Origin: Promethearchaeota archaeon
GTDB lineage: Archaea; Asgardarchaeota; Hermodarchaeia; Hermodarchaeales; Hermodarchaeaceae
Assembly (NCBI GenBank): GCA_048938295.1
Contig: JBHLMI010000002.1
Location: 90,001 to 122,000 of the forward strand
Direction: 5' to 3'
DNA: 32,000 bases
Numbering within the stretch: position 1 is the stretch's first letter; each line of letters opens with the position of its first letter. Of the stretch, positions 15,285 through 31,795 are shown piece by piece. A program made the position numbers and the translations under genes. The notes beneath the pieces were generated by a model. It was not told where the DNA came from, did no database searches, and saw only the letters and a list, made by a program, of their open reading frames with translations.

Positions 15285-17795
15285 TTAGAACAGGTCATCA
15301 AGTTCATCTTCTCCTGGCATTTTCCCATGATCTTGTACATACTGTTGAAGGAGTTCAGTTTCCCGTTTTGTGTACATAGGATCTTCTTCAAACTGGAAGA
15401 ATTTGGCATTAGGTTGTTGGGTCATCTTCTCTTTCAGCGCTGCTTGAAGATCACCAGTTCCCTTGATAATTAAAACCGTCTTTTTCAAATCTGCGAGTAT
15501 AAATACACCAGGTCTTGATGGAATCTGATCAATTTGCTTTTCTTCAAAGATAAGCCAAGCTTCCGGAGGCATCGTAGGCGGAGTCAATAATAATCTAAGA
15601 TCACACTGTAGACAGCGCTGAGCCTCCTTTTGTGCCACTTCAAATGGAAGGGCTAGCTCAACCTCTTCAAAGGATGAAACACGGACATGCTTAGGAAGCA
15701 AGGGCAATTCTGCACGCTCCCATTTGAAGAAGCCCTCATCACGTCCCAATTGGTGGGTGATTTTTGGTTCACCCGTAAGACTCTCAACGAGGGAGCCTGT
15801 GCCACCCAAAAAGGTATCAATCTGTGAAGCAGCTTGACGGCCATTGGCCATTGCTTCCACTACAGAGGTGGGTCCTGTTACTACATCGCCAGCCGCGAAG
15901 ATCCCACTAACCTGGGTTTCCCAAGAGTTCTCTTTCGTTGCTAGAGTTCCCTTTTCTGTAATTTTCAATTCTATTCCATTATTAATTTTGGATAGATCAA
16001 CGGATTGGCCCACCGCAAAGAAAACAGTATCTGCGTTGATGGTTTGCGTGGTTTCTTCATCAAAGCTGGGATTGAAGCAACCTTTCTCATCAAAAACACA
16101 GGTACACCTTATTAATTCAATCCCCGCAACCTTTCCACCTTCTCCAAGAATCCGTTGAGGTCCCCAGGACGTTTGAAGCTCAACACCTTCATCCACTGCT
16201 TCAGAAACTTCCCATTCATGCGCTGGCATTTCTACATCTGTTTCTAAACAGGTAAGCATCACTTTTTCAGCGCCTAAACGGATAGAGGTCCGCGCAACAT
16301 CAATTGCCACACTTCCGCCACCAACAACAATGACATCATTCCCAAGATCTGGTTTCTCTCCTGTATTCACTTTTCTCAAGAAGTCTAATCCATTAAACAC
16401 ACCGGAGAGATCATGACCCTCAATCAATAGATCTTTACCCGCTTGTGTCCCGATGGCGAGTAGTACAGCATCAAAGTCGTCTTTTAGTTGAGGAACAGAG
16501 ATTTCAACACCAATGGGAGTTTCTGTTCTAATCTTTACACCCATTTTGGTAAGAACTTGAATATCAGCATCTAACACTGTTCGTGGTAGCCGATAGGTGG
16601 GAATCCCAGATCGAAGCATTCCTCCTGGTTCCTTTTGCGCCTCAAAGATGGTTACATCATGGCCTAATCGCGCGAGGTAGAAAGCAGCACTTAGACTAGA
16701 AGGCCCAGATCCGACAATTCCTACACGTTTTCCTGTTGACGTGGAAATTGATAGCTCTGATTGCCATTGACCAGTATCATTCTCAATAGCAGTTCGTTTG
16801 AGTCCCAAAATGCATAAAGCCCCATTGAGATCTGTTCGCCGACATTTCTCTTCACAAGGATGATGGCATACATGACCTAACACGGATGGGAGTGCAGCCT
16901 TTTCGCGAATAACTGCTGTAGCTTGTGTATAATCACCTACCGCTACCAGACGGAGGTATCGTGGAATATCAATTTGCAGGGGGCAGCTATTGACACAGGG
17001 AAGCAATACAGCCTCTCGATCAGCCCAGATAACTTTTTGATCTAATAGTGCACCAGTGGGACAAACCTCTACACAAGCCCCACAGAATTTACAGCCAGAT
17101 TCACCCAGACTTTGAGCTTTTGATCCAACGATTAATTGCTTCCCGTCAAAAGCCATCCCTAATGCATCAATGCCACGAAGGTCTCTGCAGGCTCTAATAC
17201 AACGAGTGCATCCAATGCATAGATTGTAGTTGCGGATGATTAATGGTTCATCTTCAATTTTCGGAAGCTTTTGGGGAACGTAACGGGGGGTATCTTCCCG
17301 AATGCCCACATATTCTGCGACCTTCTGCAGTTCACAACGTCCAAATTTCTCGCAACATCTTTCATCAACGGGAACATTGGGTGGGCAAGGCTCACGGGCA
17401 CACCCTTCTCGTTGTGCACAGGTTAAACATGCATGGGGGTGAGTAGATAATATTGAAACTAACTTTTCTTGACGGTGTGCAACAATTGCTGGCGTGACAG
17501 TAAACACAACCATTCCTTCCTCAACAAGGGTATCACAAGCTTGAAGAATTCCATCCCGTCCTTCGATTTCAATTGCACAGAGACCACAGCCCTCATACAC
17601 TACATTCTCTCCAATGTTTTTAATTTCTTGACTCCCACGAAAGACATTACCAGTGGTTTTGGTTCCCACTCCAGATGGCAAATCGGGATGGTAACACAAG
17701 CGAGGAATGTACACATCCACAGACTCAGCTGCAATTAGTAAGTTCGAGCCCGCATCTACTTCAGCTTCTATACCATTTATTGTCAATTTTACCAT
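15285..17795 (-). CDS. bzdV: BzdV-like multi-domain Fe-S flavoprotein (NuoG/HydA-like Fe-S N-terminus, GltD/NfnB-like FAD/NAD(P) core, GIY-YIG-like C-terminal domain)
   Basis: LCYHPDL...GCGLC...QAC [2Fe-2S]; HPHACLTC...C; CIGCTRCIRAC and CKFCGACVEVCP; PCVNSCP...GHVCHHPCEEKCRR; GSGPSSL; GGGSVAID; FAAGDVVTGP; EAQRCLQC. Position after bzdM matches bzd clusters. Confidence 0.85.
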   Translation of the reverse strand: MVKLTINGIEAEVDAGSNLLIAAESVDVYIPRLCYHPDLPSGVGTKTTGNVFRGSQEIKNIGENVVYEGCGLCAIEIEGRDGILQACDTLVEEGMVVFTVTPAIVAHRQEKLVSILSTHPHACLTCAQREGCAREPCPPNVPVDERCCEKFGRCELQKVAEYVGIREDTPRYVPQKLPKIEDEPLIIRNYNLCIGCTRCIRACRDLRGIDALGMAFDGKQLIVGSKAQSLGESGCKFCGACVEVCPTGALLDQKVIWADREAVLLPCVNSCPLQIDIPRYLRLVAVGDYTQATAVIREKAALPSVLGHVCHHPCEEKCRRTDLNGALCILGLKRTAIENDTGQWQSELSISTSTGKRVGIVGSGPSSLSAAFYLARLGHDVTIFEAQKEPGGMLRSGIPTYRLPRTVLDADIQVLTKMGVKIRTETPIGVEISVPQLKDDFDAVLLAIGTQAGKDLLIEGHDLSGVFNGLDFLRKVNTGEKPDLGNDVIVVGGGSVAIDVARTSIRLGAEKVMLTCLETDVEMPAHEWEVSEAVDEGVELQTSWGPQRILGEGGKVAGIELIRCTCVFDEKGCFNPSFDEETTQTINADTVFFAVGQSVDLSKINNGIELKITEKGTLATKENSWETQVSGIFAAGDVVTGPTSVVEAMANGRQAASQIDTFLGGTGSLVESLTGEPKITHQLGRDEGFFKWERAELPLLPKHVRVSSFEEVELALPFEVAQKEAQRCLQCDLRLLLTPPTMPPEAWLIFEEKQIDQIPSRPGVFILADLKKTVLIIKGTGDLQAALKEKMTQQPNAKFFQFEEDPMYTKRETELLQQYVQDHGKMPGEDELDDLF

Positions 17796-17860
17796 TGGCG
17801 TCCACCTTCTCAGAGGATCTTCAGAGCATAAAGTTGGAATAGGTGCCGATTGTATTGTGA

Positions 17861-18172
17861 TTAGAGCATTTGTCCTTTTGCAGTACTAAGGAAATGAGTA
17901 ATAGCATGTGTAGGGCACACTGATACGCAAGGGGGCTCATCGTCCCCACTTGTTGTCTTACATGGAGCACAACTGTACTTGAGTTTGTGTCGATGTTCCT
18001 CTCGGACACCCAAGATGTCACCATCATCAATATCGAAATCATTTGGAACAACTTCTAACACTGATGCAGGACAGACTTCAACACATTTTCCACACCCATC
18101 ACATTTGTCTGTATCCAAAGTGATGAAATATTCCCCCGATCCATCCTTGTACCCGTAATTTGCAATCAACAT
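17861..18172 (-). CDS. bzdM: Benzoyl-CoA reductase-associated ferredoxin (BzdM-like)
   Basis: IANYGYKDGSGEYFITLDTDKCDGCGKCVEVCP...YSCAPCK...PPCVSVCP. Directly downstream of bzdQ, with an AGGTGA RBS. Confidence 0.88.
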   Translation of the reverse strand: MLIANYGYKDGSGEYFITLDTDKCDGCGKCVEVCPASVLEVVPNDFDIDDGDILGVREEHRHKLKYSCAPCKTTSGDDEPPCVSVCPTHAITHFLSTAKGQML

Positions 18173-18187
18173 TATCACCTGGATAAA

Positions 18188-19087
18188 TTAACCTTGAGAG
18201 CGTTCGTAGAGCACCTTAGCAAACAGCGCGGCTCCTGCAGCCCCTGCCAGCATCGGATCAAATCGTGGGTCATCACGCCATTGGTCTGGTTTGAGGGCTT
18301 GAATTCCCAACTCCTTTTCAACACGTTTGACTATTCCAATGTTTTTAGCAATCCCACCTGTGATAACAAATTCTTTCTCGACGCCCACTCGATTTAACAA
18401 GTCAACGACACGATGGGCCATAGCCTGGCAATACGCGGCCAAAACCTCTTCTTTTGACCAACCACTGCGAAGAAGGCCCACAGCTTCAGACTTAGCAAAA
18501 ACTACACAGGTACTACTCACGGATTGGGGTTCCTCTTTTACTGCGAAGGATCGGTCTCCGACTTCTTGGATTGGAACAGAAAGCAAATCGGCAAACACTT
18601 CCATGCCTCGACCAGTTCCCGCTGCACACTTATCATTCATTAGGAAATTCTGGACCTTTCCTTTTTCATCAACGCGAATGGCTTTGCAATCCTGACCACC
18701 CATATCAAGAACCGTTCGAACAGAAGGCCCCCACATAAAATTAGCCCCACGACCGTGACAGGCAATTTCAGTAATTGCCTTTTGTGCGAAGGGGATATTT
18801 ACTCGCCCATACCCAGTTCCTACAACATAATTCATATCTTTGAGTGTCAGTCCTGTGTCCTCCAGAGCCCAGTTCATTGTCCGCTCAGCACTATCCGGAC
18901 TGCTTGAGCCTGTTCGCATGACACTCTGTGCAAATACTTCTCCGTCAATCATGATTACAGTCTTTGAGCTGACTGAACCAATATCGACCCCTGCACTGAT
19001 AACTTTTCCATTCTTGGGATCAATGCCTTCGACTGTGTGTCGGTATTCTGGCCATCTCCAGAATTCTTCTTTAGTCATTTTCATCAC
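18188..19087 (-). CDS. bzdQ: Benzoyl-CoA reductase (Bzd-type class I), ATPase/activase subunit Q
   Basis: N-terminal FWRWPE, GVDIGSVSSK, MRTG.SSPDSA, GTGYGRVN, TEIACHGRGAN, DMGGQDCKAI, MNDKCAAGTGRGMEV, STCVVFAKSE. Confidence 0.92.
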   Translation of the reverse strand: MMKMTKEEFWRWPEYRHTVEGIDPKNGKVISAGVDIGSVSSKTVIMIDGEVFAQSVMRTGSSSPDSAERTMNWALEDTGLTLKDMNYVVGTGYGRVNIPFAQKAITEIACHGRGANFMWGPSVRTVLDMGGQDCKAIRVDEKGKVQNFLMNDKCAAGTGRGMEVFADLLSVPIQEVGDRSFAVKEEPQSVSSTCVVFAKSEAVGLLRSGWSKEEVLAAYCQAMAHRVVDLLNRVGVEKEFVITGGIAKNIGIVKRVEKELGIQALKPDQWRDDPRFDPMLAGAAGAALFAKVLYERSQG

Positions 19088-19860
19088 TCCTTTGTTCTTT
19101 CCTGGGCTACCAGAGCAGCCCCATAAGCACTCACGTATTCAGGAAACTCAGGCACATGAACTTCTACTCCTAATCCCCGCTTCATTGAGTCCACAAAGCC
19201 CACATCATAAGCGAGTCCCCCAACCAAAAGGACGTCCTCAGTTATTCCCAACCTTCGAACCATTGAAATCACTCGTTCTGCAATCGCATCATGTATCGCA
19301 CGAGCAATGTTTGCTTTTGGGGTCTGATTATGAATAAGTGAGACGACTTCAGATTCCGCAAAGACCGTACATTGTGCATTCATCGGAACGGCTTCTGTGG
19401 CTTTCAATGACATTTGACCTATCTCACTTAATTCAACTTCCAGTGCTCGGGACATGGCTTCAACAAATGCCCCTGCTCCCGCTGCACACCTTTCATTCAC
19501 CACAAAGTCTTCCATACCCCCGGATTCATTACATTTGACAGCCCGTGCTTCCTCAGCCCCGACATCAATAATGGTCCGAGCTGACAATAACAACTTGACC
19601 CCTGCTTTGGCATTTGCCCCGACTTCGCTAATACTATCTGCTGCAAATTCTACTGACCCTTGGCCAATTCCGGTCTCTGTGATGTGGGCAATGTCTTCGA
19701 GCTTCAACCCTGCAGCCTTTAAAGCCATCTCTGAGGCTTCTTTAGCAGCAATATTGAGATCAAAGCCTGTTGATGCTTTTCCCTTTCCAACTATCTTTCC
19801 ATCATCGAGGATGACGACTTTTACGTTCTTTGCCCCAAAGTCAATTCCGGCAGTAATCAT
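19084..19860 (-). CDS. bzdP: Benzoyl-CoA reductase (Bzd-type class I), ATPase/activase subunit P
   Basis: TAGIDFGAK, DVGAEEARAV, NERCAAGAGAFVE, NAQCTVFAESEVVSL. ASKHA (BadF/BadG/BcrA/BcrD) fold, located between bzdO and bzdQ. Confidence 0.9.
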   Translation of the reverse strand: MITAGIDFGAKNVKVVILDDGKIVGKGKASTGFDLNIAAKEASEMALKAAGLKLEDIAHITETGIGQGSVEFAADSISEVGANAKAGVKLLLSARTIIDVGAEEARAVKCNESGGMEDFVVNERCAAGAGAFVEAMSRALEVELSEIGQMSLKATEAVPMNAQCTVFAESEVVSLIHNQTPKANIARAIHDAIAERVISMVRRLGITEDVLLVGGLAYDVGFVDSMKRGLGVEVHVPEFPEYVSAYGAALVAQERTKE

Positions 19861-19873
19861 TTTTGACTTCCTC

Positions 19874-21172
19874 TTATTTGACTCCTAATAATTCCAAGAA
19901 AGAATCCACGGCTTTCTTCGTGCGTTCCAAATCGAATTCTCTTTCATCACCCATATTTCCTTCAAAAGGAAGTACTGGGATGCCCGCTTCCTTGAAAGCG
20001 AGACGGTTCTCTGCGATGTTCAACGATAAACCTTCACATCCGCGATTATAATGCAACATAACGCCATCAACGTTCCATTCTCGAACAATGCGGAGCATCA
20101 TGTCACTTTTCTTTTGAGCGGAATAGAAGTGCTGCCATTCAGGTCGAGAATGGGTCCAATCAGCTAAAATCTCGAGTGCCTGTTTTCGGGTAGTAATATC
20201 AATTCCTTGCTCTTGTGGTGTCGTTCTGGGACCCCAAGTGCCATCTTCTTTCACTTCCCATGCTCCAATCAAACTAAAAGTGTAAAGCGATCCAACGGAC
20301 ACTACACCATATGATTCGAGATATCGGAAAATTTTAAGAAAAGCCCATGGAGGTTGGGTGTCTGTAATAACCCGGCGTTGTTCATTACCCACTGCGGCGA
20401 TTTTGTTATTGACGCGATCTTGGACTTCGTCCCGAAGTTTTCGATAGAAGGCTACAATCTCAGGTCGATGTTTCATGATAGTTCCAAATACATAGAGTGA
20501 ATACATCGTCTTTTCATCGAGTGGTGCCGGGATTGTTTTATTCAGAGCACAAATCTCTGCCCACAGGGAAGTGGCTTCACATTCGTTGTAAACCGCTTGG
20601 ATTAGTTTTTGATCATCATAATCCCGGCCAGTGGTTTTTTCGAGCCAATCTATGCCATCTAGCAATTGATTCACAACGTATTCTCGACGGCGCTCATTGA
20701 AATCCTCAGTAAGTCCTGTGCTCACATCAATACAAAAGAAAGGCACGCCGCCTTCTAGGTCGCTAGCGATTTGATACCATTTTGCGTGACTACAGCAAAT
20801 GTGAGTGGTCCACATGAAATCTGGTTTGGGAAATTTGCCACCAAATACGTATTCGTCTAACACGACTGAACCAAGATAGTTTCGTAAATATGCACACAGA
20901 TCTCGAGCAAATCCTTTTGCTTCAATAGCTTCATGGCATCGTGCTGCAAATTCTTTGTTGAATGCAACTGAAGCCCCATATGGTTCTCCAGTGAGACTCC
21001 ACACATCGTCACCTAGACCAGCAGGAACCGCACTATAAGCCCAGGCTCCACCTGCCCATCGGATTCCACCTTTCTCATGAGCTTTTGCATAATTATCATA
21101 GTATTGTTGTCGTAACGCTTTCCCTTCATTCCAGATATCCAAAGGTTTAGTCTTGTATTTCATCTCAGTCAT
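19874..21172 (-). CDS. bzdO: Benzoyl-CoA reductase (Bzd-type class I), subunit O
   Basis: [62 protein letters not shown]. 2-hydroxyacyl-CoA dehydratase D-component family. Confidence 0.93.
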
Positions 21173-21181
21173 TTACTTCAC

Positions 21182-22306
21182 CTAAAACAGGTCGGGTAGT
21201 GCGAACGTTTCCAGAAACGCTTCAACACGAGTCTTAAACTGTCCAATTGGTACCGTTACATCAAATTCTAAGAAATAAGTTGGAATACCATTCTCTTCGA
21301 GCATTGAACGCAAAGCCGGCATATCTAATTCATGGGGATCACAGAACTTCTGTTGAATAACAAGGGCGCCTTCAACGTTGTAGTCTTTAGCCAGTTGCAA
21401 AATGTGTGGGAATCGTTTTCGAATAGGCCAGTCTTTACTAGGACAAGGAGGTCGATCAATGTACCTGGCAGAGATAGCAGCCAACCGGTCTTCTTGAGGT
21501 TCAACCGCGTTCCAGAAATATCGAGTGCCCGTACAATGTTCATCAACCACGAGTGTAGAATCTAATGACTCAACCATTTCCACAAATTCTGTGTCGTCAT
21601 CTTCACTTCCGATAATCATAAGACGAGTTCCAGTATTTCTGTCAAGTTTCCGAGTCGGTAATTCTTTTAGCACTTCTTCCAAAGCTTGATTGTGTTCTTC
21701 CTTATCGACCATTTGACTAGAAACAACCATGTACATTGCTTCGAGCCCAGTCAGAGGGGGATTTTCCTGTTTCCGAAACTCATAGACTTGTTTCATTAGT
21801 TGGCGATTCTTGTTCAAAACCTCGATACCTCGATCTATGTCATTATCCGAGATCGAGCGTCCAATCCATTTCTCCAAGGCTTTTTTGAAAACCTCCAGTT
21901 CTCCCCGTAAATATGGGTAAGCGTGTGGCGTTTGGACCCCATGGGGCATGTACATGTAATAACTGAAGTCTAGGGGAATGTGCTTGACCCAGCTATTGAA
22001 CGCTTGGCGGATATGCAGACACGATTGAGCAATCATGATACCATTGACGTAATCGAATCGACCTTTCAAACCTTGAGCCAAGCAGTCACGGCAAAAGGGA
22101 CAAAACATCCCAAAGATATGAGGTTCGGTTACATCCTGTGCCTCGTGACTGCCCAAGATGCGAACGGGAAGGATATCAGCAGCAAGAAGAAGTTCTTCGG
22201 GGACATAAGTACAGAAATAGCCGAGAACTTTTCCACCTGTTCGTTTTTTCCAAGCTTGTGCGTAGTCGTGTCGGTTAGTGTACCATTCTTTGAATTTTTC
22301 AAACAT
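21182..22306 (-). CDS. bzdN: Benzoyl-CoA reductase (Bzd-type class I), subunit N
   Basis: EWYTNRHDYA..WK.RTGGKV...CTYVPEEL, VTEPHIFGMFCPFCRDCLAQGL, HCTGTRYFWN, CPSKDWP, QQKFCDPHELD, GQFKTRVEAF. Probable start ATG 22306 (track GTG 22330). Confidence 0.93.
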   Translation of the reverse strand: MFEKFKEWYTNRHDYAQAWKKRTGGKVLGYFCTYVPEELLLAADILPVRILGSHEAQDVTEPHIFGMFCPFCRDCLAQGLKGRFDYVNGIMIAQSCLHIRQAFNSWVKHIPLDFSYYMYMPHGVQTPHAYPYLRGELEVFKKALEKWIGRSISDNDIDRGIEVLNKNRQLMKQVYEFRKQENPPLTGLEAMYMVVSSQMVDKEEHNQALEEVLKELPTRKLDRNTGTRLMIIGSEDDDTEFVEMVESLDSTLVVDEHCTGTRYFWNAVEPQEDRLAAISARYIDRPPCPSKDWPIRKRFPHILQLAKDYNVEGALVIQQKFCDPHELDMPALRSMLEENGIPTYFLEFDVTVPIGQFKTRVEAFLETFALPDLF

Positions 22307-22383
22307 CGGGATCTTCCTACCCTGAAACACACTTGGAGAAGGACGTGTTGTTCACGGCGTACCTGTGTGATACTCCTTAAGAA

Positions 22384-22477: not shown

Positions 22478-22813
22478 TTGACCAATTGGTATACTCAAAA
22501 GACTCGAGACTTGCTTTCTGCAATCACTCACCCCTCACGCGTGGCGATTCTGGAATTCTTGTCTGACCGTGATTTTGGAACGAATAAATCATTTAGACAA
22601 CATCTCAAAACTTTACAACCTAAGGCTGGTGGTGATTCACCGGCAGTTGTTACCCATCATGTTGCTTTACTTGAAAAATCTGGTTTAGTTAAGCATTCAG
22701 TGGATGATGCTAGGGTTATAATTGCTACAGCGATGGGGCGTAGAATGATTCGATTGCTAAGACAAATGATATCAAATTCGGACTTAGAGCAGTCGTGGGA
22801 TCGGTCCCTTTAG
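22478..22813 (+). CDS. ArsR-like winged-helix transcriptional regulator
   Basis: THPSRVAILEFL...VVTHHVALLEKSGLV...TAMGRRMI. AGGAG RBS 8 nt before the TTG. Divergent from bzdN. Confidence 0.75.
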   Translation: MTNWYTQKTRDLLSAITHPSRVAILEFLSDRDFGTNKSFRQHLKTLQPKAGGDSPAVVTHHVALLEKSGLVKHSVDDARVIIATAMGRRMIRLLRQMISNSDLEQSWDRSL

Positions 22814-23454
22814 AGATTGAATCCTTGTTCGCGGAGCACTTGAGTTAGGTTCTTTCCTTGGTCTCGGGCTCGTTGTAGGAAAAATCGAAGGTAGCGATCG
22901 AAGAAAGGATTACTACCTTTTGCTGCGAGGGGTATTCCGAGGATCATGTCACCTTTTATTAGTCCTAATCGTTGGGCTGCCATTCCCACCGACCACATCA
23001 TTCGGTTATCGATGAAGTGTTGGGCGGCTACAGTTATTGCAGATGAGAGGGCAATCCCTAAATCCAGGATTTTAAAGGCACAAAGAGCCGTGGTTTTCTT
23101 TTGGCCAACCGCCTTTTCATAATCAGCACAGGTTTCGAATCCACAGGCTTTACAATCAAGGGTAAGGGGCGGGCGTTGGGCATGGATACCTATAAGGAAA
23201 ATGGCAGCACTTTCTTTTACAGCTTCAGCATCAGGTTCTAAAAACCAAAAGGTTTGACCAGTGAGGTCTTCTTGGCGCATCCTTTCGATTTCTTTGGCGG
23301 TTTGGTGAATTGTGGGTCCAGATACGATTTCAATTGTTAGATCATCGAAGCCTTTAGATTTGGGAGCAGTGGTTGCAGCTGCTGCCATTAGATTTGCTAC
23401 AGATTTAACTGCCTCGTTAGTGAGCGTCTCTCTTTTTGTTGGTATTTGATTCAC
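22810..23454 (-). CDS. DUF2148 / putative Fe-S protein
   Basis: AA.TAPK.KG.D, DA..V, CKACGFETC, CAFKILDLGIAL.SA, IDNRMM.SVG.AA, GIPL...G.NPFFDR. Confidence 0.88.
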   Translation of the reverse strand: MNQIPTKRETLTNEAVKSVANLMAAAATTAPKSKGFDDLTIEIVSGPTIHQTAKEIERMRQEDLTGQTFWFLEPDAEAVKESAAIFLIGIHAQRPPLTLDCKACGFETCADYEKAVGQKKTTALCAFKILDLGIALSSAITVAAQHFIDNRMMWSVGMAAQRLGLIKGDMILGIPLAAKGSNPFFDRYLRFFLQRARDQGKNLTQVLREQGFNL

Positions 23455-23497: not shown

Positions 23498-24787
23498 TCA
23501 GTTCTTTGGTGCTTTCCCAGTAATGGCTTTTACAATAGCCCAGAACTCCTCTTCTTTCAAACCAAGGCGGGTTTCTCGGAGGAGCTCAGCGGCTTTATGT
23601 AATTGGCGAAGCATTTCAACCTTATCTCTGAGTTTATGCGTCTCTTTCACCTGCGATACAATTTGCTGAATTTCTTCATCAGTGGCTTCGATGTTTTCTT
23701 GCTCCAGCTTAGTTTTTACAATATGACTCCCAGTATGTTTTCCCATGTAGAATTCAGTTTTCCGTCCAACCGTTTCAGCGGGAATTGGTTCATAGGTTAG
23801 CTGGTGAGAGAGGATGCCATGAACGTGGATACCTGCTTCGTGTGAAAAGGCGTTTTCACCAGTAATGGCTTTATGGACCGGAAGGAGGATGGCAAACGCT
23901 TCACTCACCAAATCAGCCAGTTCTTGGATTCTTTCGGTTTTGATGCCCGTTCGAACGTCATAAAGGAATTCGAGTGCCATGACTACTTCTTCGAATGGAG
24001 CGTTCCCAGCACGTTCACCAAAACCAGCGACACATACATGCGGAACAGTAACGCCTTCCTCTACTGCCGCCAAAGTGTTAGCAGTGGCTAGACCAAAGTC
24101 ATTATGGTTATGAATGGAAAGCTGAACTTTACCTTTGACTTCTTGGTTAAGGCGGTCACGGACGTGAGAAACCATATATCGCATCGATTCTGGTCTTAAG
24201 AAACCTACAGTATCGGTGATTACACACCGATCTGCACCAGCTTCCAATGCAGTTTTGAAGATCTTCACCGTGTTATCAATGCTCGTGCGTGAAGTATCTT
24301 CGGAAACAAAATCAACAATAACTCCGTATTTCTTTGCATATTCAACGCAATCGGTTACAATGCTTAGTGCTTCTTCCTGGGTTTTCTTTAGCTTGTATTT
24401 CAGGTGAAGATTACTGAATGCAATAAATATAGGTACTTCTTCGGCTCCTGCCTGGATGGCAACATCAATGTCAGATCTAATTGCACGAGCTGGCGCACAT
24501 AATTTGGCTTGTTTGAAACCTTCGGCGGCTATTCGACGAACAACCTCTTCTTCATCTTTAGAAACAGCAGGAAAACCCACGTTAATTATTGCAAATCCCA
24601 TCTCATCCATGAGTTTTGCTATTTCGATCTTTTCATCAATTAAAAGACTAGTGCCTGGTGTCTGTTCACCATCACGAAGGGTTTCATCCCAAATAAGAAC
24701 TTCTTTGGGTAGATATTTTGGCTTTGTTGCAGGAACTTTGTTAAAGTTAACGATTAAGCCATCTGCCTCTAATTCGTCTAACAACAT
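23498..24787 (-). CDS. DRE-TIM acyltransferase of the LeuA/homocitrate synthase/Re-citrate synthase family, lacking the IPMS regulatory domain
   Basis: DETLRDGEQTPG, SEDTSR, DTVG, HNHNDFGLATAN, GFGERAGNA, G.NAFSHEAGIH, YEP.....VG, GKHTG. 429 aa. Confidence 0.88.
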   Translation of the reverse strand: MLLDELEADGLIVNFNKVPATKPKYLPKEVLIWDETLRDGEQTPGTSLLIDEKIEIAKLMDEMGFAIINVGFPAVSKDEEEVVRRIAAEGFKQAKLCAPARAIRSDIDVAIQAGAEEVPIFIAFSNLHLKYKLKKTQEEALSIVTDCVEYAKKYGVIVDFVSEDTSRTSIDNTVKIFKTALEAGADRCVITDTVGFLRPESMRYMVSHVRDRLNQEVKGKVQLSIHNHNDFGLATANTLAAVEEGVTVPHVCVAGFGERAGNAPFEEVVMALEFLYDVRTGIKTERIQELADLVSEAFAILLPVHKAITGENAFSHEAGIHVHGILSHQLTYEPIPAETVGRKTEFYMGKHTGSHIVKTKLEQENIEATDEEIQQIVSQVKETHKLRDKVEMLRQLHKAAELLRETRLGLKEEEFWAIVKAITGKAPKN

Positions 24788-24822
24788 TTGCTTCTGCCAT
24801 CCTGTTCAATCAATATGGATAG

Positions 24823-24851
24823 TATAGACTTAAGTTTCTTTCTTGTCTATA
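24823..24851. repeat. Inverted repeat TATAGAC-N15-GTCTATA in a divergent promoter region
   Basis: 24823-24829 and 24845-24851 are reverse complements, with an overlapping palindrome ACTTAAGT at 24828-24835. Confidence 0.45.
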
Positions 24852-24892
24852 ATGTAAAAACATTTGAACTCACATCAGGCAGGAGAAAATCC

Positions 24893-25669
24893 ATGGGTTC
24901 TGGATATACTAATGTAAGAGTTGACGTCTCAGATGGTGTAGGGCAGATTTTAGTGAATCGCCCACCCTTGAATATCCTTGATCAACAAACACTGACAGAA
25001 CTTTATATGGCATTATTGGATATGAAGACAAATTCGGGAGTGAATATCGTTCTTCTTAGAACGGCAGGTGAGCGATTCTTTTCCGTTGGGGTGGATGTCG
25101 AACAGCATCTTCCTGAACATGCCCCAAAAACTTTAGAGGCATTCAATAAAGTCTTTGAAGCCCTCATTGATGTTGATAAACCTGTCATTGCTGTTGTTCA
25201 AGGGTCAGCCTTAGGCGGCGGGTGTGAGCTGGCCTTTGCTTGTGATATTGTGATTGCCGTGGATTCAGCTAAGTTTGGTCAGCCAGAAATTCAAGTAGGT
25301 GCTGTGCCTACGGTTGCTGCCGCAGCCATGCATCATTTTATTGGTCAAAAACGAACCTTCGAATTGCTTTATACTGGAGATAGCATTTCTGCTGAAAAAG
25401 CTGTACAGATTGGACTCATTAACCATGCTGTACCAGCTGATCAGTTGGAGAAGATAGTCGATGAATTTATTACTAAACTTAAGGAGCATAGTCCAATTAT
25501 GCTTCGGTATGTTCGGCGAGCCCTGTACAAAAGTAGGCATCTCGACTTTTTGCAGGCTGTAGAAAAATCGACTGAAATTTACCTCGACTCGTTGAAAAAT
25601 ACCGAGGATGCGTCTGAGGGACTCAAGGCATTCTTAGAGAAGCGCAAACCAGAATGGAAAGGGAAATAG
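24893..25669 (+). CDS. dch: Enoyl-CoA hydratase family, probably cyclohexa-1,5-diene-1-carbonyl-CoA hydratase
   Basis: RPPLNIL, FSVGVDVEQH, ALGGGCEL, AKFGQPEI (both crotonase glutamates). AGGAG RBS before ATG 24893. Context: adjacent to had and bzdNOPQ. Confidence 0.8.
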   Translation: MGSGYTNVRVDVSDGVGQILVNRPPLNILDQQTLTELYMALLDMKTNSGVNIVLLRTAGERFFSVGVDVEQHLPEHAPKTLEAFNKVFEALIDVDKPVIAVVQGSALGGGCELAFACDIVIAVDSAKFGQPEIQVGAVPTVAAAAMHHFIGQKRTFELLYTGDSISAEKAVQIGLINHAVPADQLEKIVDEFITKLKEHSPIMLRYVRRALYKSRHLDFLQAVEKSTEIYLDSLKNTEDASEGLKAFLEKRKPEWKGK

Positions 25670-25684
25670 AGGTACAAGTGAAGA

Positions 25685-26707
25685 TTAGGGAATAACGATA
25701 TTCCGACCAAGAACCTTGCCTTCTTCGAGGAGCTTGAAGGCTTCATTAATTTCTTCAAGTGGACGTTTGCTATCGATTATCGGTTTGATTTGAATGACCC
25801 CTTGTTCTACCATCCTCAAGAGGGGAGGATAATCGACTGCACGACAGCCCAGCGATCCCCGTATTTCGATTTCTCGGTACATGACTCGCGATGCTGAGAC
25901 AGTCCAATCGGATTCGGCATAGCCTACAACAACCATCCGTCCGCCCCATTTTACTACGGCTAATGCTTGACTCATGACATCAGGAATGCCAATGGCCTCA
26001 AAGGAGATATCTACACCTCGCTTTTGGGTTAAGTCTCGAATCTGTTTGACGGGGTTCTCATCCTTGGAGTTTATCATCACAGTAGCTCCGAGTTTTTCAG
26101 CGAGTTTCAACTTCTTGTCATCAATATCGACGGCATATACAATGCCACCTGTGGCAGCAGCGATTTGCACCACATTGATACCCACCCCCCCACAACCAAA
26201 AACAGCGACCAAATCACCTGGGCGAACTTCGCCACGATTCTTTACAGCATGGTAGGGTGTAGATATTGCATCAGCAACGATACTTGTTTCTTCTAGAGGT
26301 AATGAGTCGGGAATTCGAAAGATCTCCTTCGCTGGGACACGAATGTATTCAGCATATGCGCCATCAATGTTGTTTCCCACCATTTCTTGGCGTTGGCAGA
26401 CGTTTCCACGCCCTAATCGACAATTATCACAAAATCCACAGCTAAGAACGGCAGGAATTAATACGCGATCTCCTTTAGCCCAATTATCCACAGCAGATCC
26501 AAGTTCGGCAATAGTTCCTGATGCTTCATGGCCAAGTACCATGGGAGGTTTTTTGAAAGTGGGGGTACCATGCAAATAGTGAAGGTCAGTTCTGCATACT
26601 CCACAGGCTGCCACTTTAATCAACACATCACCCGGTCCGAGTTCAGGTGTAGGTATGTCTTCGATTTGAAGCGGTTTTCCGGCGCCATAGAATACTGCAG
26701 CTTTCAC
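25685..26707 (-). CDS. had: Zn-dependent dehydrogenase, probably 6-hydroxycyclohex-1-ene-1-carbonyl-CoA dehydrogenase
   Basis: ACGVCRTDLHY, PTFKKPP..LGHE, CGFCDNC......C, DAISTPYHA, GCGGVG, GSLGCR..DYP. Probable start GTG 26707 with an AGGTG RBS. Confidence 0.82.
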   Translation of the reverse strand: MKAAVFYGAGKPLQIEDIPTPELGPGDVLIKVAACGVCRTDLHYLHGTPTFKKPPMVLGHEASGTIAELGSAVDNWAKGDRVLIPAVLSCGFCDNCRLGRGNVCQRQEMVGNNIDGAYAEYIRVPAKEIFRIPDSLPLEETSIVADAISTPYHAVKNRGEVRPGDLVAVFGCGGVGINVVQIAAATGGIVYAVDIDDKKLKLAEKLGATVMINSKDENPVKQIRDLTQKRGVDISFEAIGIPDVMSQALAVVKWGGRMVVVGYAESDWTVSASRVMYREIEIRGSLGCRAVDYPPLLRMVEQGVIQIKPIIDSKRPLEEINEAFKLLEEGKVLGRNIVIP

Positions 26708-26947
26708 TGAGAACACCTGGGCAAGTATCTGACTTAGAACCTTATATTCTTTAGCAAGATTACATTCAATAAAAAAGTGCTTTCTCTTAGCTCAAAAGAA
26801 TTAATAGATTGATTACGTGTAGTATGAAAAAAAACATCGAAGTTCAGACAAAGAACTGAAACACCTGAGGGTGCCAAGGTTGGGATCCAAAGTTAAGATA
26901 ATTAAAAGTGTATGTCGTAGTTGCTATGGTGGTTGGGGAGAGAACCA

Positions 26948-27244
26948 ATGGAAAGCGCAGATTTGGGTGTCAAAATCCGTTTGATAGGTGTGTTGAAGAT
27001 TACAACAGGAATCGAAGATGTAAAGCTGGATTTAGAGGATAATGACACAATTGATTCTATTCTCAATAGGCTAGTAGAAAGGTACCCTGCTCTTCGTCAA
27101 GAATTGTACACTGAGACTGGTGAGATTCATAAGTATCTCAACATTTTTGTTGACAACAAACCTGTTCTTCAGCAAAATCTTAATGATATCCCGATTCAGA
27201 AGCCAACGACATTAACACTGGTTATGGCAGTTGGTGGTGGATGA
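26948..27244 (+). CDS. moaD: MoaD/ThiS-family ubiquitin-like sulfur carrier
   Basis: beta-grasp pattern (YLNIFVDN) and C-terminal AVGGG. First gene of the AOR operon. Confidence 0.85.
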   Translation: MESADLGVKIRLIGVLKITTGIEDVKLDLEDNDTIDSILNRLVERYPALRQELYTETGEIHKYLNIFVDNKPVLQQNLNDIPIQKPTTLTLVMAVGGG

Positions 27245-27267: not shown

Positions 27268-29100
27268 ATGACAACAAACCAATATGCGCTTGTCAATCTA
27301 AGTAAAGATTCAGTGAAAATCACAGAAATACCAGCAAATGTCATAAGAAGCTATTTAGGCGGTCGAGGAACGAACGTCTATCATCTTAACAAGTTGCTCA
27401 GGAAGAATGTAGATCCCCTTTCTCCAGAAAACGTGCTGATATTTGGTGCTGGTTTACTTACGGGGTACCTCATCCCAAATGCGTCGCGATTCAATGTGAC
27501 AGCGAAATCCCCCGAATCCGGCTTTTTAGGTGACACTAACTGTGGAGGTTATTTTGGTCCTGAGATGCGTTATGCTGGTTTTAATCAGATTATCATACTG
27601 GGCAAAGCGAAGAATCCAAGTTACATTTACCTTCAAGATGGTTCCGTTGAAATTCGAGACGCTTCGGATTATTGGGGTCTTGATACATATGACGTTCAAA
27701 CCGAGTTACGGAAAGATCTAGGTGATGTACAGGCTGCTGTCACAGGAGAAGCTGGTGAAAAACTCGTCCGGTTTGCTAACATTCGAAACGGTGTGAAAAA
27801 CTCTGGAGGGCGGGGTGGTCTTGGTGCGGTAATGGGATCGAAGAACTTGAAAGCCTTAGTCGCCTATGGAACTCAAGGTCTTGATGTTGCTCATCGTGAA
27901 CAGCTTCTGGAGGTCACCAAAAGTATCAACGATTATGTCCTAAACTCTAAGGTCATCTCAGTCATGGGTAAACTAGGTTCTCCATATCTGTATGATGTTA
28001 GTAATGCGCTGGGGGCCATTCGCACAAAGAACAGTCAGCTGAATGCCTGGTCCGATTCACTAAACGCGGAATATTTCGAAGAGTATGCTGAGAAAATGGT
28101 TTCTTGCGCCTCTTGCATTGTCCATTGCCGGCACAGGAATACCATGGATGGAGAAGGCCCTGAATATACAACGATTGGATTACTGGGAGCAAACATTGGC
28201 TTAACTGATCCAAAACAGGTTATCGAGTTGAATAACCTCTGTAACCGCCTAGGGTTAGATACAGCATCTGCAGGGACCATACTTGCATGGACCTTTGAAC
28301 TCTATGAAAAAGGAATTGTTGACAAATCAAAGTTCCTCGGGGAGAAACTTGAATTCGAGAATTTCGAACTTGCTAAATCTCTATTAGAAAAAATTGCCCG
28401 ACGTGAGGGGCTTGGAGATGTTCTAGCGGAAAGCACTCAAGCTGTACACCATTTTGGACCAAAATCAGCAGATTATCTTATTGCTGTAAAGAATTTACCG
28501 CAAAGTGATCCCCACGATGTTCGATACATCAAGGCGTTCGCACTAGGTATAGCAACCGCTTCGAGAGGAGCGGATCACCTCCGGAGTCGACCTACCCTTG
28601 AAATCTTTCTCCGCTTACCGCAAGAAGTAAAAGAAAGCATCTATGGCCCGGGTATCTCACCTGACCCTACGTCATATGAGGGAAAGGAGAAAGCCGTTTT
28701 TTGGTCTGATAACATGTACGCAGTAATTGATGCGGTAGGAATCTGCAAATTCATCTGCCATGGTTTCAACAGCCCGCATCTCATTGGATATGAACAGGTA
28801 AAGGAATTTCTACACGCTGCAGTTGACCTCAAATTCGACGAACAAGAATTGCAGGAGGTTGGAAAACGAATTATTGACACGGAACGAATCCTCAATCTTC
28901 GATTTGGACTCACTCGGGCAGATGATTCATTACCCAAACGTTACTTTGATGACCCCGCTCCCCTGAAGACTGCAGAAGGTCATCATGTTGATCGTAAGCA
29001 GTTTCAAATCATGTTGAATCGATATTATGCCCTTCGCGGATGGAACGATGAGGGATCAGTACCTGAAGAACGTGTTAATGAATTGGAGGCGATTGAATGA
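27268..29100 (+). CDS. aor: Tungsten-containing aldehyde:ferredoxin oxidoreductase family protein (atypical active-site motif)
   Basis: DPLSPEN.LIFG, R.....KSP, GEAGEKLVRFA, GRGGLGAVMGSKNLKA, CASCIVHC (28105-28128), LG.DT, RGADH, D..GICKF, RII..ER..N, D.LPKR, YY..RGW. Confidence 0.93.
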   Translation: MTTNQYALVNLSKDSVKITEIPANVIRSYLGGRGTNVYHLNKLLRKNVDPLSPENVLIFGAGLLTGYLIPNASRFNVTAKSPESGFLGDTNCGGYFGPEMRYAGFNQIIILGKAKNPSYIYLQDGSVEIRDASDYWGLDTYDVQTELRKDLGDVQAAVTGEAGEKLVRFANIRNGVKNSGGRGGLGAVMGSKNLKALVAYGTQGLDVAHREQLLEVTKSINDYVLNSKVISVMGKLGSPYLYDVSNALGAIRTKNSQLNAWSDSLNAEYFEEYAEKMVSCASCIVHCRHRNTMDGEGPEYTTIGLLGANIGLTDPKQVIELNNLCNRLGLDTASAGTILAWTFELYEKGIVDKSKFLGEKLEFENFELAKSLLEKIARREGLGDVLAESTQAVHHFGPKSADYLIAVKNLPQSDPHDVRYIKAFALGIATASRGADHLRSRPTLEIFLRLPQEVKESIYGPGISPDPTSYEGKEKAVFWSDNMYAVIDAVGICKFICHGFNSPHLIGYEQVKEFLHAAVDLKFDEQELQEVGKRIIDTERILNLRFGLTRADDSLPKRYFDDPAPLKTAEGHHVDRKQFQIMLNRYYALRGWNDEGSVPEERVNELEAIE

Positions 29101-29552
29101 GATACATTTTCGTTTATCCTGAACGGTGCACGGGTTGCCGATTATGTTCACTTGCTTGTTCATTAACCAAATTTGGGGAATGCAACCCAAGAAAGGCAGC
29201 AATTAGTGTTGTTCGAGATGAGTTTGAACGGTTTGAGTTTCCAGTGGTATGTTTTCAATGCCAGGACGCGCCTTGTATCGCCGCATGCCCACAAAACGCT
29301 ATCACAGAGGTGGAAGGAATAACATCACGCGACGAGAACCGCTGCATTGGTTGTCGACTGTGTGCAGTTGTGTGCCCATTCTCTGCGATAACAACCCACG
29401 GTAAGGACCTAATTCGTTGTGATCTTTGTGGCGGTGATCCACAGTGCGTAAAATATTGTTCCACAAAGGCCATTGTATATGAGGAAGAAACACAGGAAGC
29501 AATGCAACGACGAAAGGTGCAATTAGCCCGGGTTCTAATTCCGGAGAAATAA
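29097..29552 (+). CDS. 4x[4Fe-4S] polyferredoxin (AOR/WOR small-subunit type)
   Basis: CTGCRLCSLAC, CFQCQDAPCIAACP, CIGCRLCAVVCP, CDLCGGDPQCVKYC. ATGA overlap with the aor stop. Confidence 0.92.
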   Translation: MRYIFVYPERCTGCRLCSLACSLTKFGECNPRKAAISVVRDEFERFEFPVVCFQCQDAPCIAACPQNAITEVEGITSRDENRCIGCRLCAVVCPFSAITTHGKDLIRCDLCGGDPQCVKYCSTKAIVYEEETQEAMQRRKVQLARVLIPEK

Positions 29553-29571: not shown

Positions 29572-30807
29572 TTAAGTTTGTTTTTCTCGAGATTGCCAAT
29601 AACGTTGACCAATGAGTGTATCTTTTTTCAGAGAATCAAGGACATCTGAAATGTTGGCTCCAGTTCGATGAGCTTGCAGGATAAACCCTGAATTTCGAAG
29701 ATCTCCAATTGCTTGGTAACCTAAAACCTTGCCATCGCAAATTATGAGTTTCCGGAAAGCTTTGTTTCGGTGTATCCTGATAATGTCACATTTACCTATT
29801 TCAGTTGAAGGCTGGCCAATGCTAAGCACTGGTATCTCAAAGATGTTAATCAAATTGATGGCATCAGATCCCTGATATGAAACCTTTAGACCAAGCATAT
29901 TTTGTGCTGCGGTTCGTCCTTGATAAATGGCATTTGGCCATATTGCATTAATCCTTAATTTATTCGTAGCGCGTTCTATGGCTTCTGCGACATCGCCCGC
30001 CGCGTATACGTTTGCAACGTTGGTTTGCATATATTCGTTTACAAGAATTCCTTGATTTGTTTTAATTCGGGTTCCTTGGATAATGTCAATATTTGGACGA
30101 ACACCCACAGCTACGACGACAAGGTCACATTGTAGTTGTTTCTTACCAATTTGTACCCCTTTGACGGCTTTTTCACCAAGAACTTTGCTAACACTTGTTG
30201 AAGTATGAACTTCTATGCCTTGTTCTTGTAAAAGCTGGCGCACGATTTCGGCCGTATCTTCATCTAACATTCGAGGTAGAAGATGATTTTCTCTTTCAAT
30301 GATTGTCACTTGGGCACCAAGGCGATGGAGAGCAGTGGCACTTTCGATGCCGACAAATCCCCCACCAATTACAACTACATGTTTTATCTTCTGTTTCGCT
30401 CTTGCTAGGATGCTTTTGCTATCTCGCAAATTCATTAGAGTGACGACACCATCTTTATCAAGCCCTTCTATTCGAGGTTTGATTGCAGATGCACCAGTGG
30501 CGATGAGAAGCTGATCATAGGTGAGTTCGTCCCCCGTTTCAAGGAAAACGGAGTTGGACTGCGGATTTACCGCTGTGACAGTTGTGGCTAGTTTCATTTC
30601 AATTCCCTCGTCTTCAAAATACTGGGGATCAAACCGATCGAGATATTGTTCATCAATTTCTCCAGCAACAAAAGAGGGAAGAGAGAACAACGCGTAGAAT
30701 CGTGTATCCTTTGTGATTAACACGACATCAAAGGTATGTTTATGTTCAATTAGTGTTTGTACTGCACTCAGCCCAGCTGCTCCGCTTCCGATTATCACAA
30801 GGCGCAT
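29572..30807 (-). CDS. FAD-dependent pyridine-nucleotide oxidoreductase (NADH oxidase/rubredoxin reductase/AorC-like)
   Basis: IIGSGAAG, YDQLLIATGA, VIGGGFVGIE, IERE (acidic, NADH-type), GVRPN, GILVNEYMQT, YAAGDVAE, W.NA..QGR.AA.NM. Confidence 0.9.
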   Translation of the reverse strand: MRLVIIGSGAAGLSAVQTLIEHKHTFDVVLITKDTRFYALFSLPSFVAGEIDEQYLDRFDPQYFEDEGIEMKLATTVTAVNPQSNSVFLETGDELTYDQLLIATGASAIKPRIEGLDKDGVVTLMNLRDSKSILARAKQKIKHVVVIGGGFVGIESATALHRLGAQVTIIERENHLLPRMLDEDTAEIVRQLLQEQGIEVHTSTSVSKVLGEKAVKGVQIGKKQLQCDLVVVAVGVRPNIDIIQGTRIKTNQGILVNEYMQTNVANVYAAGDVAEAIERATNKLRINAIWPNAIYQGRTAAQNMLGLKVSYQGSDAINLINIFEIPVLSIGQPSTEIGKCDIIRIHRNKAFRKLIICDGKVLGYQAIGDLRNSGFILQAHRTGANISDVLDSLKKDTLIGQRYWQSREKQT

Positions 30808-30931
30808 GTGAATCCACTCAACCCCAAAAATAGTCCCTTTCGCCTAAAAATACGCTTGGTAGCAGCACACAATTTTGGCGAATAACAGGTTTTTTATTAA
30901 CATCCTGCATAGCCTCTTCGAGGTGACGCTT

Positions 30932-31795
30932 TTGGAAATCAAAAAAGTCGCAGTCGTTGGCGCTGGACTCATGGGTCACGGTGTGACACAAGTTCTGGCT
31001 CAGATTGCTGGTTATGAGGTATATCTGAAAGACATCAAGCAAGAATTCATTGACACGGGTATGGGTCGTATCAAATGGAGTCTTGACAAACTTGTTGAGA
31101 AAGAGAAACTCGCTCAAGCTGATGCGGATGCAACACTTAACCGTATTCACCCTACCCTTGAAATGAAGGAAGCGATGAGTGACACAGATTTCATCATTGA
31201 GGCAGTGCCCGAAAATTTAGATCTTAAGAAGAAGATCTTTGCTGAAATGGATGAACTAGCACCTTCACATGCAATACTCGCATCGAACACTTCATCAATC
31301 AGTATTAGCCAGATAGCCGCAGCCACTAAACGTCCCGATAAGGTAGTGGGTATGCACTTCTTTAATCCTGTGCAAATCATGAAGCTTGTTGAAATTATCC
31401 GGGGAGAAAATACGTCAGATAACACCATTTCAGTGGTTGAGCAAGTATCACAGAAAATGGGTAAGGAAACCGTGCTTTGTAAGAAAGATTCACCTGGTTT
31501 CATTGTCAACCGTATCCTAGTTCCTGCGCTTAATGAAGCCATCTGGTTACTCCAAGAGGATGTTGCGGAACCTGAGGATATTGATAAGGCAATTAAATTG
31601 GGATTAAACTGGCCAATGGGACCAATCACACTCTTGGATTATGTAGGATTAGACACTACTCTTTCCATCACTAAAGTATTTCAAAAAGAGATGGATGAAC
31701 ACAAATACGCTGCAGCTCCACTACTTGGAAAGATGGTTAAAGAAGGCAAGTTAGGTAGAAAGACAAAGCAAGGATTTTATGATTGGAACAAGTAA
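30932..31795 (+). CDS. 3-hydroxyacyl-CoA (3-hydroxybutyryl-CoA-like) dehydrogenase
   Basis: VVGAGLMGHG, IIEAVPENLDLK, ASNTSSI, GMHFFNPV, KDSPGFIVNR, PMGP..L.DYVGLD, G.LGRKT..GFY. GAGGTGA RBS 5 nt before TTG 30932. Confidence 0.93.
   Translation: MEIKKVAVVGAGLMGHGVTQVLAQIAGYEVYLKDIKQEFIDTGMGRIKWSLDKLVEKEKLAQADADATLNRIHPTLEMKEAMSDTDFIIEAVPENLDLKKKIFAEMDELAPSHAILASNTSSISISQIAAATKRPDKVVGMHFFNPVQIMKLVEIIRGENTSDNTISVVEQVSQKMGKETVLCKKDSPGFIVNRILVPALNEAIWLLQEDVAEPEDIDKAIKLGLNWPMGPITLLDYVGLDTTLSITKVFQKEMDEHKYAAAPLLGKMVKEGKLGRKTKQGFYDWNK

Follow-up and report, generated by a model that had tools for sequence, protein, structure and literature searches.

WorL and its companion genes

We analysed a 32,000-nucleotide stretch of a Hermodarchaeota genome (Promethearchaeota archaeon, contig JBHLMI010000002.1, positions 90,001 to 122,000 of the forward strand), hereafter called the window, which encodes a member of the tungsten oxidoreductase (WOR) family, WorL, in the vicinity of an ATP-dependent benzoyl-CoA reductase cluster. 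The worL gene (27268..29100, + strand) encodes a protein of 610 amino acids with the AFOR_N and AFOR_C domains (Pfam E-values of 7e-71 and 3e-100, respectively). The nearest solved structure by sequence is the aldehyde oxidoreductase (AOR) of P. furiosus (PDB 1aor; phmmer, E 6e-114; 36% identity), and the AlphaFold model of WorL, which was built from an 80-sequence family alignment, has a pLDDT of 96. When solved structures were ranked by their match to this model, 1aor came first (TM 0.92), followed by the bifurcating WOR 9mqx, the C. autoethanogenum AOR, formaldehyde oxidoreductase (FOR) and AorB, with BamB of class II benzoyl-CoA reductase in sixth place. Three of the four [4Fe-4S] ligands are provided by a CxxCxxxC motif (Cys280, Cys283 and Cys287; 28105..28128, +) and the fourth is Cys493 (28744-28746, +); all four columns are invariant in the family alignment. 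WorL is thus assigned as the catalytic subunit of an AorABC-like pyranopterin oxidoreductase, probably a tungsten enzyme, and the predicted cofactor is a W (or Mo) bis-pyranopterin.

The neighbouring genes form a small module with worL. WorX (26948..27244, +) is a MoaD/ThiS-like protein of about 98 amino acids, counted from its ATG, with a C-terminal GGG; it matches the Pfam ThiS and NCBIfam SAMP1/MoaD_arch models and is predicted to be a MoaD-like maturation protein. Its gene ends 23 nt before the worL start, and this upstream position is conserved in the Hermodarchaeota loci. On the other side, the ATG of worS overlaps the worL stop codon (ATGA). WorS (29097..29552, +) is a 151-aa polyferredoxin containing 16 Cys residues in four [4Fe-4S] motifs, and its best solved relatives are 9mqx_E (3e-33) and then AorA, 8c0z_C (1e-27). 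WorN (29572..30807, -), a 411-aa AorC/PadH-like FAD/NAD(P) oxidoreductase (Pyr_redox_2; PadH model, 251 bits), converges on WorS with a 19-nt gap, and this convergent position is kept from Hermodarchaeota to Thermoplasmata. AorC (8c0z_E, 5e-47) is the second-best solved relative of WorN by a narrow margin. The module therefore contains both a four-cluster WorS beside WorL and an AorC homologue next door, conserved but on the opposite strand, and under the classification of PMC13328260 WorXLS and WorN are predicted to constitute a class III-like WOR.

The electron partner differs elsewhere. Other Asgard families have, next to WorLS, an HdrD-like CCG-domain protein instead of WorN (L035 4000-5553 and L044 4964-6523). 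In Asgard family f20, the genes directly after WorLS encode an ApbA-family reductase and a BcrAD-type activase, and a single HGD-D protein, MaoC and EtfAB are encoded close by.

The active site of WorL lacks the Glu313 equivalent

According to a 2025 review, Thr243, Glu313, Tyr427 and His448 (P. furiosus AOR numbering) are the four second-shell residues that the aldehyde-oxidising family members characterised so far have in common, Tyr312 and Tyr452 being added as parts of the proton relay, and a Tyr427-to-His variant occurs in active enzymes (PMC12096430). Glu313 is present in every characterised aldehyde-oxidising WOR, and the proposed mechanisms use it as a base or a proton relay (PMC12096430, PMC13328260). 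No mutagenesis of Glu313 was found in our literature searches.

The motif GPEYTT of WorL (28156..28173, +) retains the equivalents of Glu311 and Tyr312, and the phmmer alignment with 1aor places Thr301 opposite Glu313 and His437 opposite His448. Thr301 is encoded by ACA (28168-28170, where the DNA reads gaa tat aca acg), which is separated from a Glu codon by two base changes. WorL thus lacks the second-shell Glu that characterises aldehyde-oxidising WORs such as AOR sensu stricto, FOR and GOR. The surrounding residues are also partly replaced. The Tyr427 position is probably occupied by His416 within the sequence P-H-D (28510..28518, +), as indicated by the 80-sequence alignment and by an ungapped register to His437. 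The pairwise phmmer alignment had placed Ser413 there, and this assignment was rejected on the same two grounds. The motif RGADHLRSR (28564..28590, +), when aligned with 1aor, provides His437 together with Arg439 in place of Lys450 and Arg441 in place of Tyr452. The Thr243 equivalent is Ser238 in LGSP (27973-27984), a conservative change that is confined to the Hermodarchaeota copies, the Thermoplasmata orthologues retaining Thr. Overall, the WorL pocket is predicted to have one negative charge fewer and one or two positive charges more.

The gain of Arg at the 452 position correlates, in the sequences compared, with the loss of Glu313: among the cluster representatives of our tree sample, this Arg was present in 14 of 21 WORs with Thr or Ser at position 313 and in 13 of 51 with another non-Glu residue, and in only one of 85 with Glu313. 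We also considered Asp436 of the RGADH motif as a compensating acid. This candidate was rejected because 'DH' is equally common among the Glu313-containing WORs, so that it is not a specific compensation.

These results bear on the original prediction, which was made from the DNA letters. It had located GGRGTN (27358-27375), LGSP, GPEYTT and RGADH (28564-28578) at positions that are all exact in the translation, and its claims that Glu is replaced by Thr with codon ACA and that the RGADH His and the four Fe-S Cys residues are kept agree with the alignments described above. The alternative it had allowed for, another acidic residue at the Glu313 position, is not what the alignment gives, which is Thr. 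It had further suggested a place for WorL possibly between the AORs and BamB, and here our data point elsewhere, as 1aor is nearest in both sequence and fold and BamB ranks sixth. A Cys matching the metal ligand of BamB (Cys322) or E. coli YdhV (Cys336) was not found in WorL, which contains no Cys between C287 and C325, and the mid-region of BamB gave no alignment to WorL residues 215-330. In one BLASTP alignment Cys336 of YdhV falls on Thr301; a fast multiple alignment differs, and the register is approximate. The BamB motif GGLGTN given there is correct. However, the TN of GGRGTN is a peculiarity of Hermodarchaeota, the motif being GGRG[LIM]N in the relatives, and many family members have N as its sixth residue.

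The Thr313-type WORs are conserved and form a deep clade

All 120 of the closest database homologues (62-92% identity) contain GPEY[T/S], and RGADH is present in 120 of 121 sequences. These homologues come from Hermodarchaeota and other Asgard metagenome-assembled genomes (MAGs), and many come from Thermoplasmata. The Hermodarchaeota genome of the window carries nine WorL paralogues, of which eight have Glu313 and this one alone has Thr. The nine loci (L006-L014) lie within a 2.5-Mb genome; L006 resembles AOR sensu stricto and L011 is FOR-like (DYEN/IGAHH).

A FastTree phylogeny was calculated from 50%-identity representatives, the genome paralogues and added Asgard sequences and was rooted on YdhV, the genome paralogues and YdhV serving as proxies for the AOR, FOR, WOR5 and BamB references. 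In this tree, WorL falls in a superclade of 37 tips (support 1.00) in which position 313 is T, S, G, A, V, Y or H and never Glu, and nearly all members of which contain a DH-x-R-x-R motif. Because Thr or Ser is found in the 120 closest homologues, Glu is kept in the eight paralogues and the superclade as a whole is Glu-less, Thr313 of WorL is not due to chance or a sequencing error. Judged from its sequence, WorL belongs to a deep, uncharacterised WOR superclade with a rebuilt second shell. The overall interpretation of the original prediction thus stands in part: a distinct clade tied to aromatic metabolism was found, but not one intermediate between AOR and BamB. The reviews of the WOR family that we consulted describe no characterised enzyme with the residue make-up of WorL. 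In a published 92-clade scheme, the Thermoplasmatales MAG entries that we compared are other paralogues of 774 aa, which belong to clade 7.

WorL accompanies a Bzd-type benzoyl-CoA reductase

The cluster neighbouring worL (15285..22330, - strand) was identified with Pfam and the NCBIfam equivalog cut-offs. All of its genes lie on the minus strand. BzdN (21182-22330; 517 bits against a cut-off of 454), BzdO (19874-21172; 622 against 449) and BzdQ (18188-19087; 407 against 380) score above the equivalog cut-offs, and a BzdP-like ATPase (19084-19860), which matches the activase model only, provides the second ATPase subunit. The cluster further contains a ferredoxin (17861-18178) and a BzdV-like Fe-S flavoprotein of 836 aa (15285-17795). 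With these subunits and scores, the cluster is assigned as a genuine Bzd-type class I benzoyl-CoA reductase, in line with the earlier claim of a benzoyl-CoA pathway next door. Partners of the BamC-I type (HdrA-like or NuoEFG-like) were not found among the open reading frames of the window. Between the reductase and the WOR module lie genes for a DUF2148 protein (22810-23454, -), an HMGL/isopropylmalate-synthase-like protein (23498-24787, -), an enoyl-CoA hydratase (24788-25669, +) and a Had-like Zn alcohol dehydrogenase (25685-26716, -).

The same order, namely the reductase, DUF2148, the HMGL-like protein, the hydratase, the Had-like dehydrogenase, WorXLS and the convergent WorN, was observed at five Hermodarchaeota loci (including L017-L019 and L027), about 5 kb separating the reductase from WorXLS. 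Within the Hermodarchaeota family (19 genomes), WorL and BzdO occur together in ten genomes; one has BzdO only, none has WorL only and eight have neither. At three Thermoplasmata loci the genes are arranged on one strand as BzdN-O-P-Q-Fd-BzdV-(MBL)-WorL-WorS, facing convergent genes for WorN, an ApbA-family reductase and an AMP-forming ligase. Of the 401 Thermoplasmatota genomes sampled, 14 contain both WorL and BzdO, four WorL only, five BzdO only and 378 neither; half of the genomes with both carry them at unlinked loci.

Two other Asgard families encode a WorL that is 42-43% identical to that of the window, with its own WorS, 1.5-20 kb from BzdNOPQ-Fd-BzdV and with had- and dch-like genes alongside. 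The reductase of these families is orthologous, its BzdO being 64-68% identical, and their WorL reads GPEYT(S) and RGADHLR[SG]R. In family f10 the worL gene is even part of the bzd cluster core, with had/dch on one side and bzdN on the other. Both reductase-linked WorL lineages have the nine-residue signature T-E-Y-T-H-D-H-R-R in common. The lineages that stand between the two in the tree have mostly other residues at position 313 or 427, although some share the Thr or the His, and the two such lineages that we examined (P0140 and P0277) occur in other contexts and are not linked to the reductase.

In 400 Asgard genomes, WOR and BzdO were found together in 52, WOR only in 19, BzdO only in six and neither in 323, and 31 of the 33 same-contig pairs lie within 30 kb. 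In these samples, 52 of the 58 BzdO-positive Asgard genomes and 14 of the 19 BzdO-positive Thermoplasmatota genomes also contain a WOR. Here, WOR was counted at E 1e-150, a threshold that also admits non-Thr members of the superclade, and the counts are not independent events, as ancestry is shared and the loci are often one physical island. The repetition across lineages, at unlinked loci and with non-orthologous WorL lineages nevertheless argues for a functional tie. Based on these observations, Thr313-type WorLS is a conserved genomic companion of the Bzd-type class I benzoyl-CoA reductase in anaerobic sediment archaea, a partnership that is newly seen here and was previously unremarked. 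The Bzd cluster itself is known from Hermodarchaeota, in a study that does not mention a WOR there (PMC8163825). Our literature searches did not turn up any account of a WOR within archaeal bzd clusters, and the published reconstructions of these lineages that we consulted do not mention such a partnership. Since synteny and co-occurrence are conserved in both Asgard archaea and Thermoplasmatota, the link of WorL to the benzoyl-CoA pathway is stronger than could be told from the window.

Comparison with characterised systems

The closest counterpart in gene content is the NAD+-linked AorABC of Aromatoleum aromaticum (PDB 8c0z), a class III WOR. Both systems share the gene set, with WorL corresponding to AorB, the four-cluster WorS to AorA and the putative FAD subunit WorN to AorC, as well as a MoaD-like accessory gene and a tie to aromatic degradation towards benzoyl-CoA, which is physiological in AorABC and is suggested here by the gene neighbourhood. 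In contrast, AorB, to which WorL is only about 30% identical, keeps Glu313, Tyr427 and the other second-shell residues; the gene for the FAD subunit is convergent here; and the WorL module is genomically tied to the reductase itself. P. furiosus AOR has the same length, Fe-S ligands, Glu311, Tyr312 and His448 as WorL, but it is a homodimer without WorS or WorN, and its Glu313, Tyr427, Lys450 and Tyr452 correspond to Thr, probably His, Arg and Arg, respectively. P. furiosus WOR5/ASOR and C. formicoaceticum AOR have His for the second-shell Tyr427, as WorL does in the 80-sequence alignment, and WOR5 also has a polyferredoxin small subunit, while both enzymes keep the Glu313 equivalent (Glu328 in WOR5). 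BamB, also a member of the AOR/WOR family, shares with WorL the absence of the aldehyde-type Glu, a place in benzoyl-CoA metabolism and the N-terminal GG(L/R)GTN motif. It differs in its Cys metal ligand, its BamDEFGHI partners and its remote structural rank, and in serving the class II enzyme, while WorL is linked to the ATP-dependent class I reductase.

Possible functions of WorL

WorL seems to be part of archaeal anaerobic aromatic breakdown, as an uncharacterised enzyme, because its gene travels with the ATP-dependent ring-reducing enzyme across two archaeal phyla. We tentatively favour, with somewhat less than even confidence, the reading that WorL may supply the benzoyl-CoA pathway by oxidising an aromatic or anionic aldehyde. 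The substrate would be an aldehyde from the funnel to benzoyl-CoA, such as benzaldehyde, hydroxybenzaldehyde or phenylacetaldehyde, or another aldehyde with an anionic group; it could derive from phenylpropanoids or aromatic amino acids, and the product would be the corresponding acid. Two low-potential electrons would pass from the metal through the WorL cluster to WorS, and from there either to the cluster-encoded ferredoxin that is used by the reductase or through WorN to NAD(P)+. The exchange of one negative side chain for one or two positive ones suggests that the substrate or product is anionic, and it would be handled without the usual Glu base. The CoA-dependent, non-beta-oxidative cleavage of cinnamoyl-type thioesters gives aromatic aldehydes that need oxidation and re-activation, and the potential of the aldehyde/acid couple is low enough for reducing the ferredoxin that the reductase needs. 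The island around WorL contains IorAB, enoyl-CoA hydratases, a 3-hydroxyacyl-CoA dehydrogenase, thiolase/DUF35 pairs and an AMP-forming ligase, which we count in favour of the aldehyde reading. In addition, AorABC of A. aromaticum oxidises phenylacetaldehyde and benzaldehyde en route to benzoyl-CoA (PMC12096430, PMC6365974), and an AorABC-like role would be the best-precedented one for WorL.

Here, we need to weigh several points that speak against aldehyde oxidation. WorL lacks Glu313, which the current mechanisms use, and this argues against ordinary aldehyde oxidation. Aromatic aldehydes are already efficient substrates of canonical AORs bearing Glu313, of which the genome has eight paralogues, so a specialised Glu-less copy for the same job is not obviously needed. 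To our knowledge, the textbook benzoyl-CoA pathway has no aldehyde-producing step. The electron partner varies, being WorN in Hermodarchaeota and Thermoplasmata and the HdrD-like CCG protein in other Asgard families. The co-occurrence counts are inflated by common ancestry and by physical linkage on one island, and the more cationic pocket of WorL is left unexplained by an aldehyde role.

Loss of the proposed catalytic Glu is the sole non-conservative change shared by the two divergent reductase-linked lineages, and the only other WOR clades known to be without second-shell residues, BamB and YdhV, are non-aldehyde enzymes or of unknown function (PMC12096430). Both facts would fit an enzyme that does not act on aldehydes but catalyses a low-potential redox reaction of some CoA thioester in the aromatic pathway, for example the reductive dehydroxylation of hydroxybenzoyl-CoA, a redox conversion of dienoyl- or monoenoyl-CoA, or the alpha-oxidation of arylacetyl-CoA. 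Thr313, His427, Arg450 and Arg452 would then form a new substrate pocket, in which the additional Arg residues could bind the CoA phosphates. The position of the gene in the bzd cluster core of family f10, where the HdrD-like CCG partner recalls BamD, and the pairwise alignment that sets the YdhV metal ligand Cys336 on Thr301 (register uncertain) point in the same direction. We nevertheless consider thioester chemistry unlikely, as P. furiosus AOR is nearest in sequence and fold with BamB only sixth, WorL has the length of AOR without the approximately 40 extra residues of BamB, the aldehyde-site residues Glu311, Tyr312 and His448 are kept, and sister lineages without Glu313 occur in unrelated contexts. 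If, instead, WorL were an ordinary broad-range AOR that detoxifies aldehydes from side reactions of 2-oxoacid oxidoreductases, its residue changes would be neutral drift and its linkage to the reductase the result of a joint horizontal transfer of a catabolic island. The metabolic reconstructions of Hermodarchaeota treat all AORs in this manner (PMC8163825), IorAB is encoded nearby, Tyr427-to-His is found in active enzymes (PMC12096430), and the 55-68% identity of WorL, WorS and the Bzd subunits between Hermodarchaeota and Thermoplasmata points to a transfer of the island. However, this generic function is already covered by the eight canonical paralogues, Thr313 and Arg452 are strictly conserved in more than 120 sequences, the co-occurrence holds at unlinked loci (e.g. 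genomes G552, G188 and G067), and linkage to an orthologous reductase (64-68% identical) is seen again in the second WorL lineage, which is only 42% identical yet carries the same signature, so that we regard such a role as quite improbable.

Two further explanations carry much less weight. The recurrent neighbours of WorL, BzdNOPQ and the single HGD-D proteins with a BcrAD activase, need low-potential ferredoxin, and the AOR of A. aromaticum shows hydrogenase activity at its tungsten site (PMC9295118, PMC12096430), so the module might be a dedicated electron input, in which H2 or another small donor is oxidised at the metal site to charge ferredoxin for the reductase and the neighbouring BcrAD-type activases. 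No precedent is known for a WOR so specialised and the ferredoxin is not always adjacent, making this very doubtful. Absence of the proposed catalytic Glu, together with the lack of activity of P. furiosus WOR4, whose second shell is also altered (PMC12096430), would also fit a catalytically dead or decaying paralogue. This is hardly credible for a gene with an intact reading frame and retained translational coupling to WorS, whose cofactor ligands and new residues are conserved across phyla.

Alongside the favoured aldehyde oxidation, a bolder proposal, which is unlikely, is that the Thr313/Arg452-type WORs represent a new functional class of tungsten enzymes and an obligate partner of the archaeal ATP-dependent benzoyl-CoA reductase, catalysing either a thioester transformation (dehydroxylation or alpha-oxidation) or the oxidation of an aldehyde from a non-canonical retro-aldol cleavage of the ring or side chain. 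The HMGL-like gene, which recurs beside WorL in three lineages, could supply a retro-aldol-type cleavage. If an aldehyde arose in this way, its oxidation would give back precisely the two low-potential ferredoxin electrons spent on ring reduction.

WorL is a genuine and conserved variant within a known enzyme family, and its partnership is unexpected and worth biochemical follow-up. A WOR type without the residue that is central to all mechanisms of aldehyde oxidation, yet strictly conserved, offers a natural test of those mechanisms, and the Thr313-type WOR is a candidate for new tungsten chemistry. Given that the partnership with the class I benzoyl-CoA reductase is conserved in Hermodarchaeota, in other Asgard archaea and in Thermoplasmatota, the current reconstructions of archaeal anaerobic aromatic degradation seem to miss a component, one that may account for the way in which strict anaerobes provide or regain low-potential electrons for the ATP-costly ring reduction.

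Other features of the window and related loci

The reductase cluster is flanked by the indolepyruvate:ferredoxin oxidoreductase genes iorB (11470-12084, -) and iorA (12081-13991, -) and by a gene for an Amidohydro_2-family protein (14142-15014, +). Beyond WorN lies a 3-hydroxyacyl-CoA dehydrogenase gene (30875..31795, +; NCBIfam, 377 bits), and the gene call in a Hermodarchaeota relative (L001) agrees with it. Two antisense open reading frames at 30818-31150 and 31147-31629 (-; 110 and 160 aa) were rejected as spurious, since their apparent conservation comes from the overlapping dehydrogenase gene. The window also encodes a 282-aa small GTPase of the Arf/Roc/Ras type (5409-6257, +), which fits the Asgard origin of the contig. 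The island continues past the window (L047, G000:C8:121001-135000) with two enoyl-CoA hydratases, two thiolase/DUF35 pairs of BbsAB-like architecture, a 649-aa AMP-forming acyl-CoA synthetase and a luciferase-like oxidoreductase.

Several related loci showed further associations. In the relative mentioned above (L001 1520-9447), the module stands beside a corrinoid methyltransferase set (MtrH, RACo, B12-binding and URO-D-like proteins) and a second WOR operon, the reductase being 18 kb off on the same contig; the methyltransferase neighbours hint at methoxylated aromatic substrates. The HMGL-like gene also adjoins a Thr/Ser313 WorL in two other Asgard families (L041 and L043). A sister-clade WorL from Syntrophaceae (EYS; L033 4544-15882) lies in a type II polyketide-like cluster with a radical SAM gene, ApbA, two ketosynthases, an ACP, cyclases and Amidohydro_2, which is unusual for a tungsten enzyme. 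Finally, a small GNAT acetyltransferase gene was observed upstream of bzdN both in Thermoplasmata (L030-L032) and in Asgard family f10 (L035 8833-9321).

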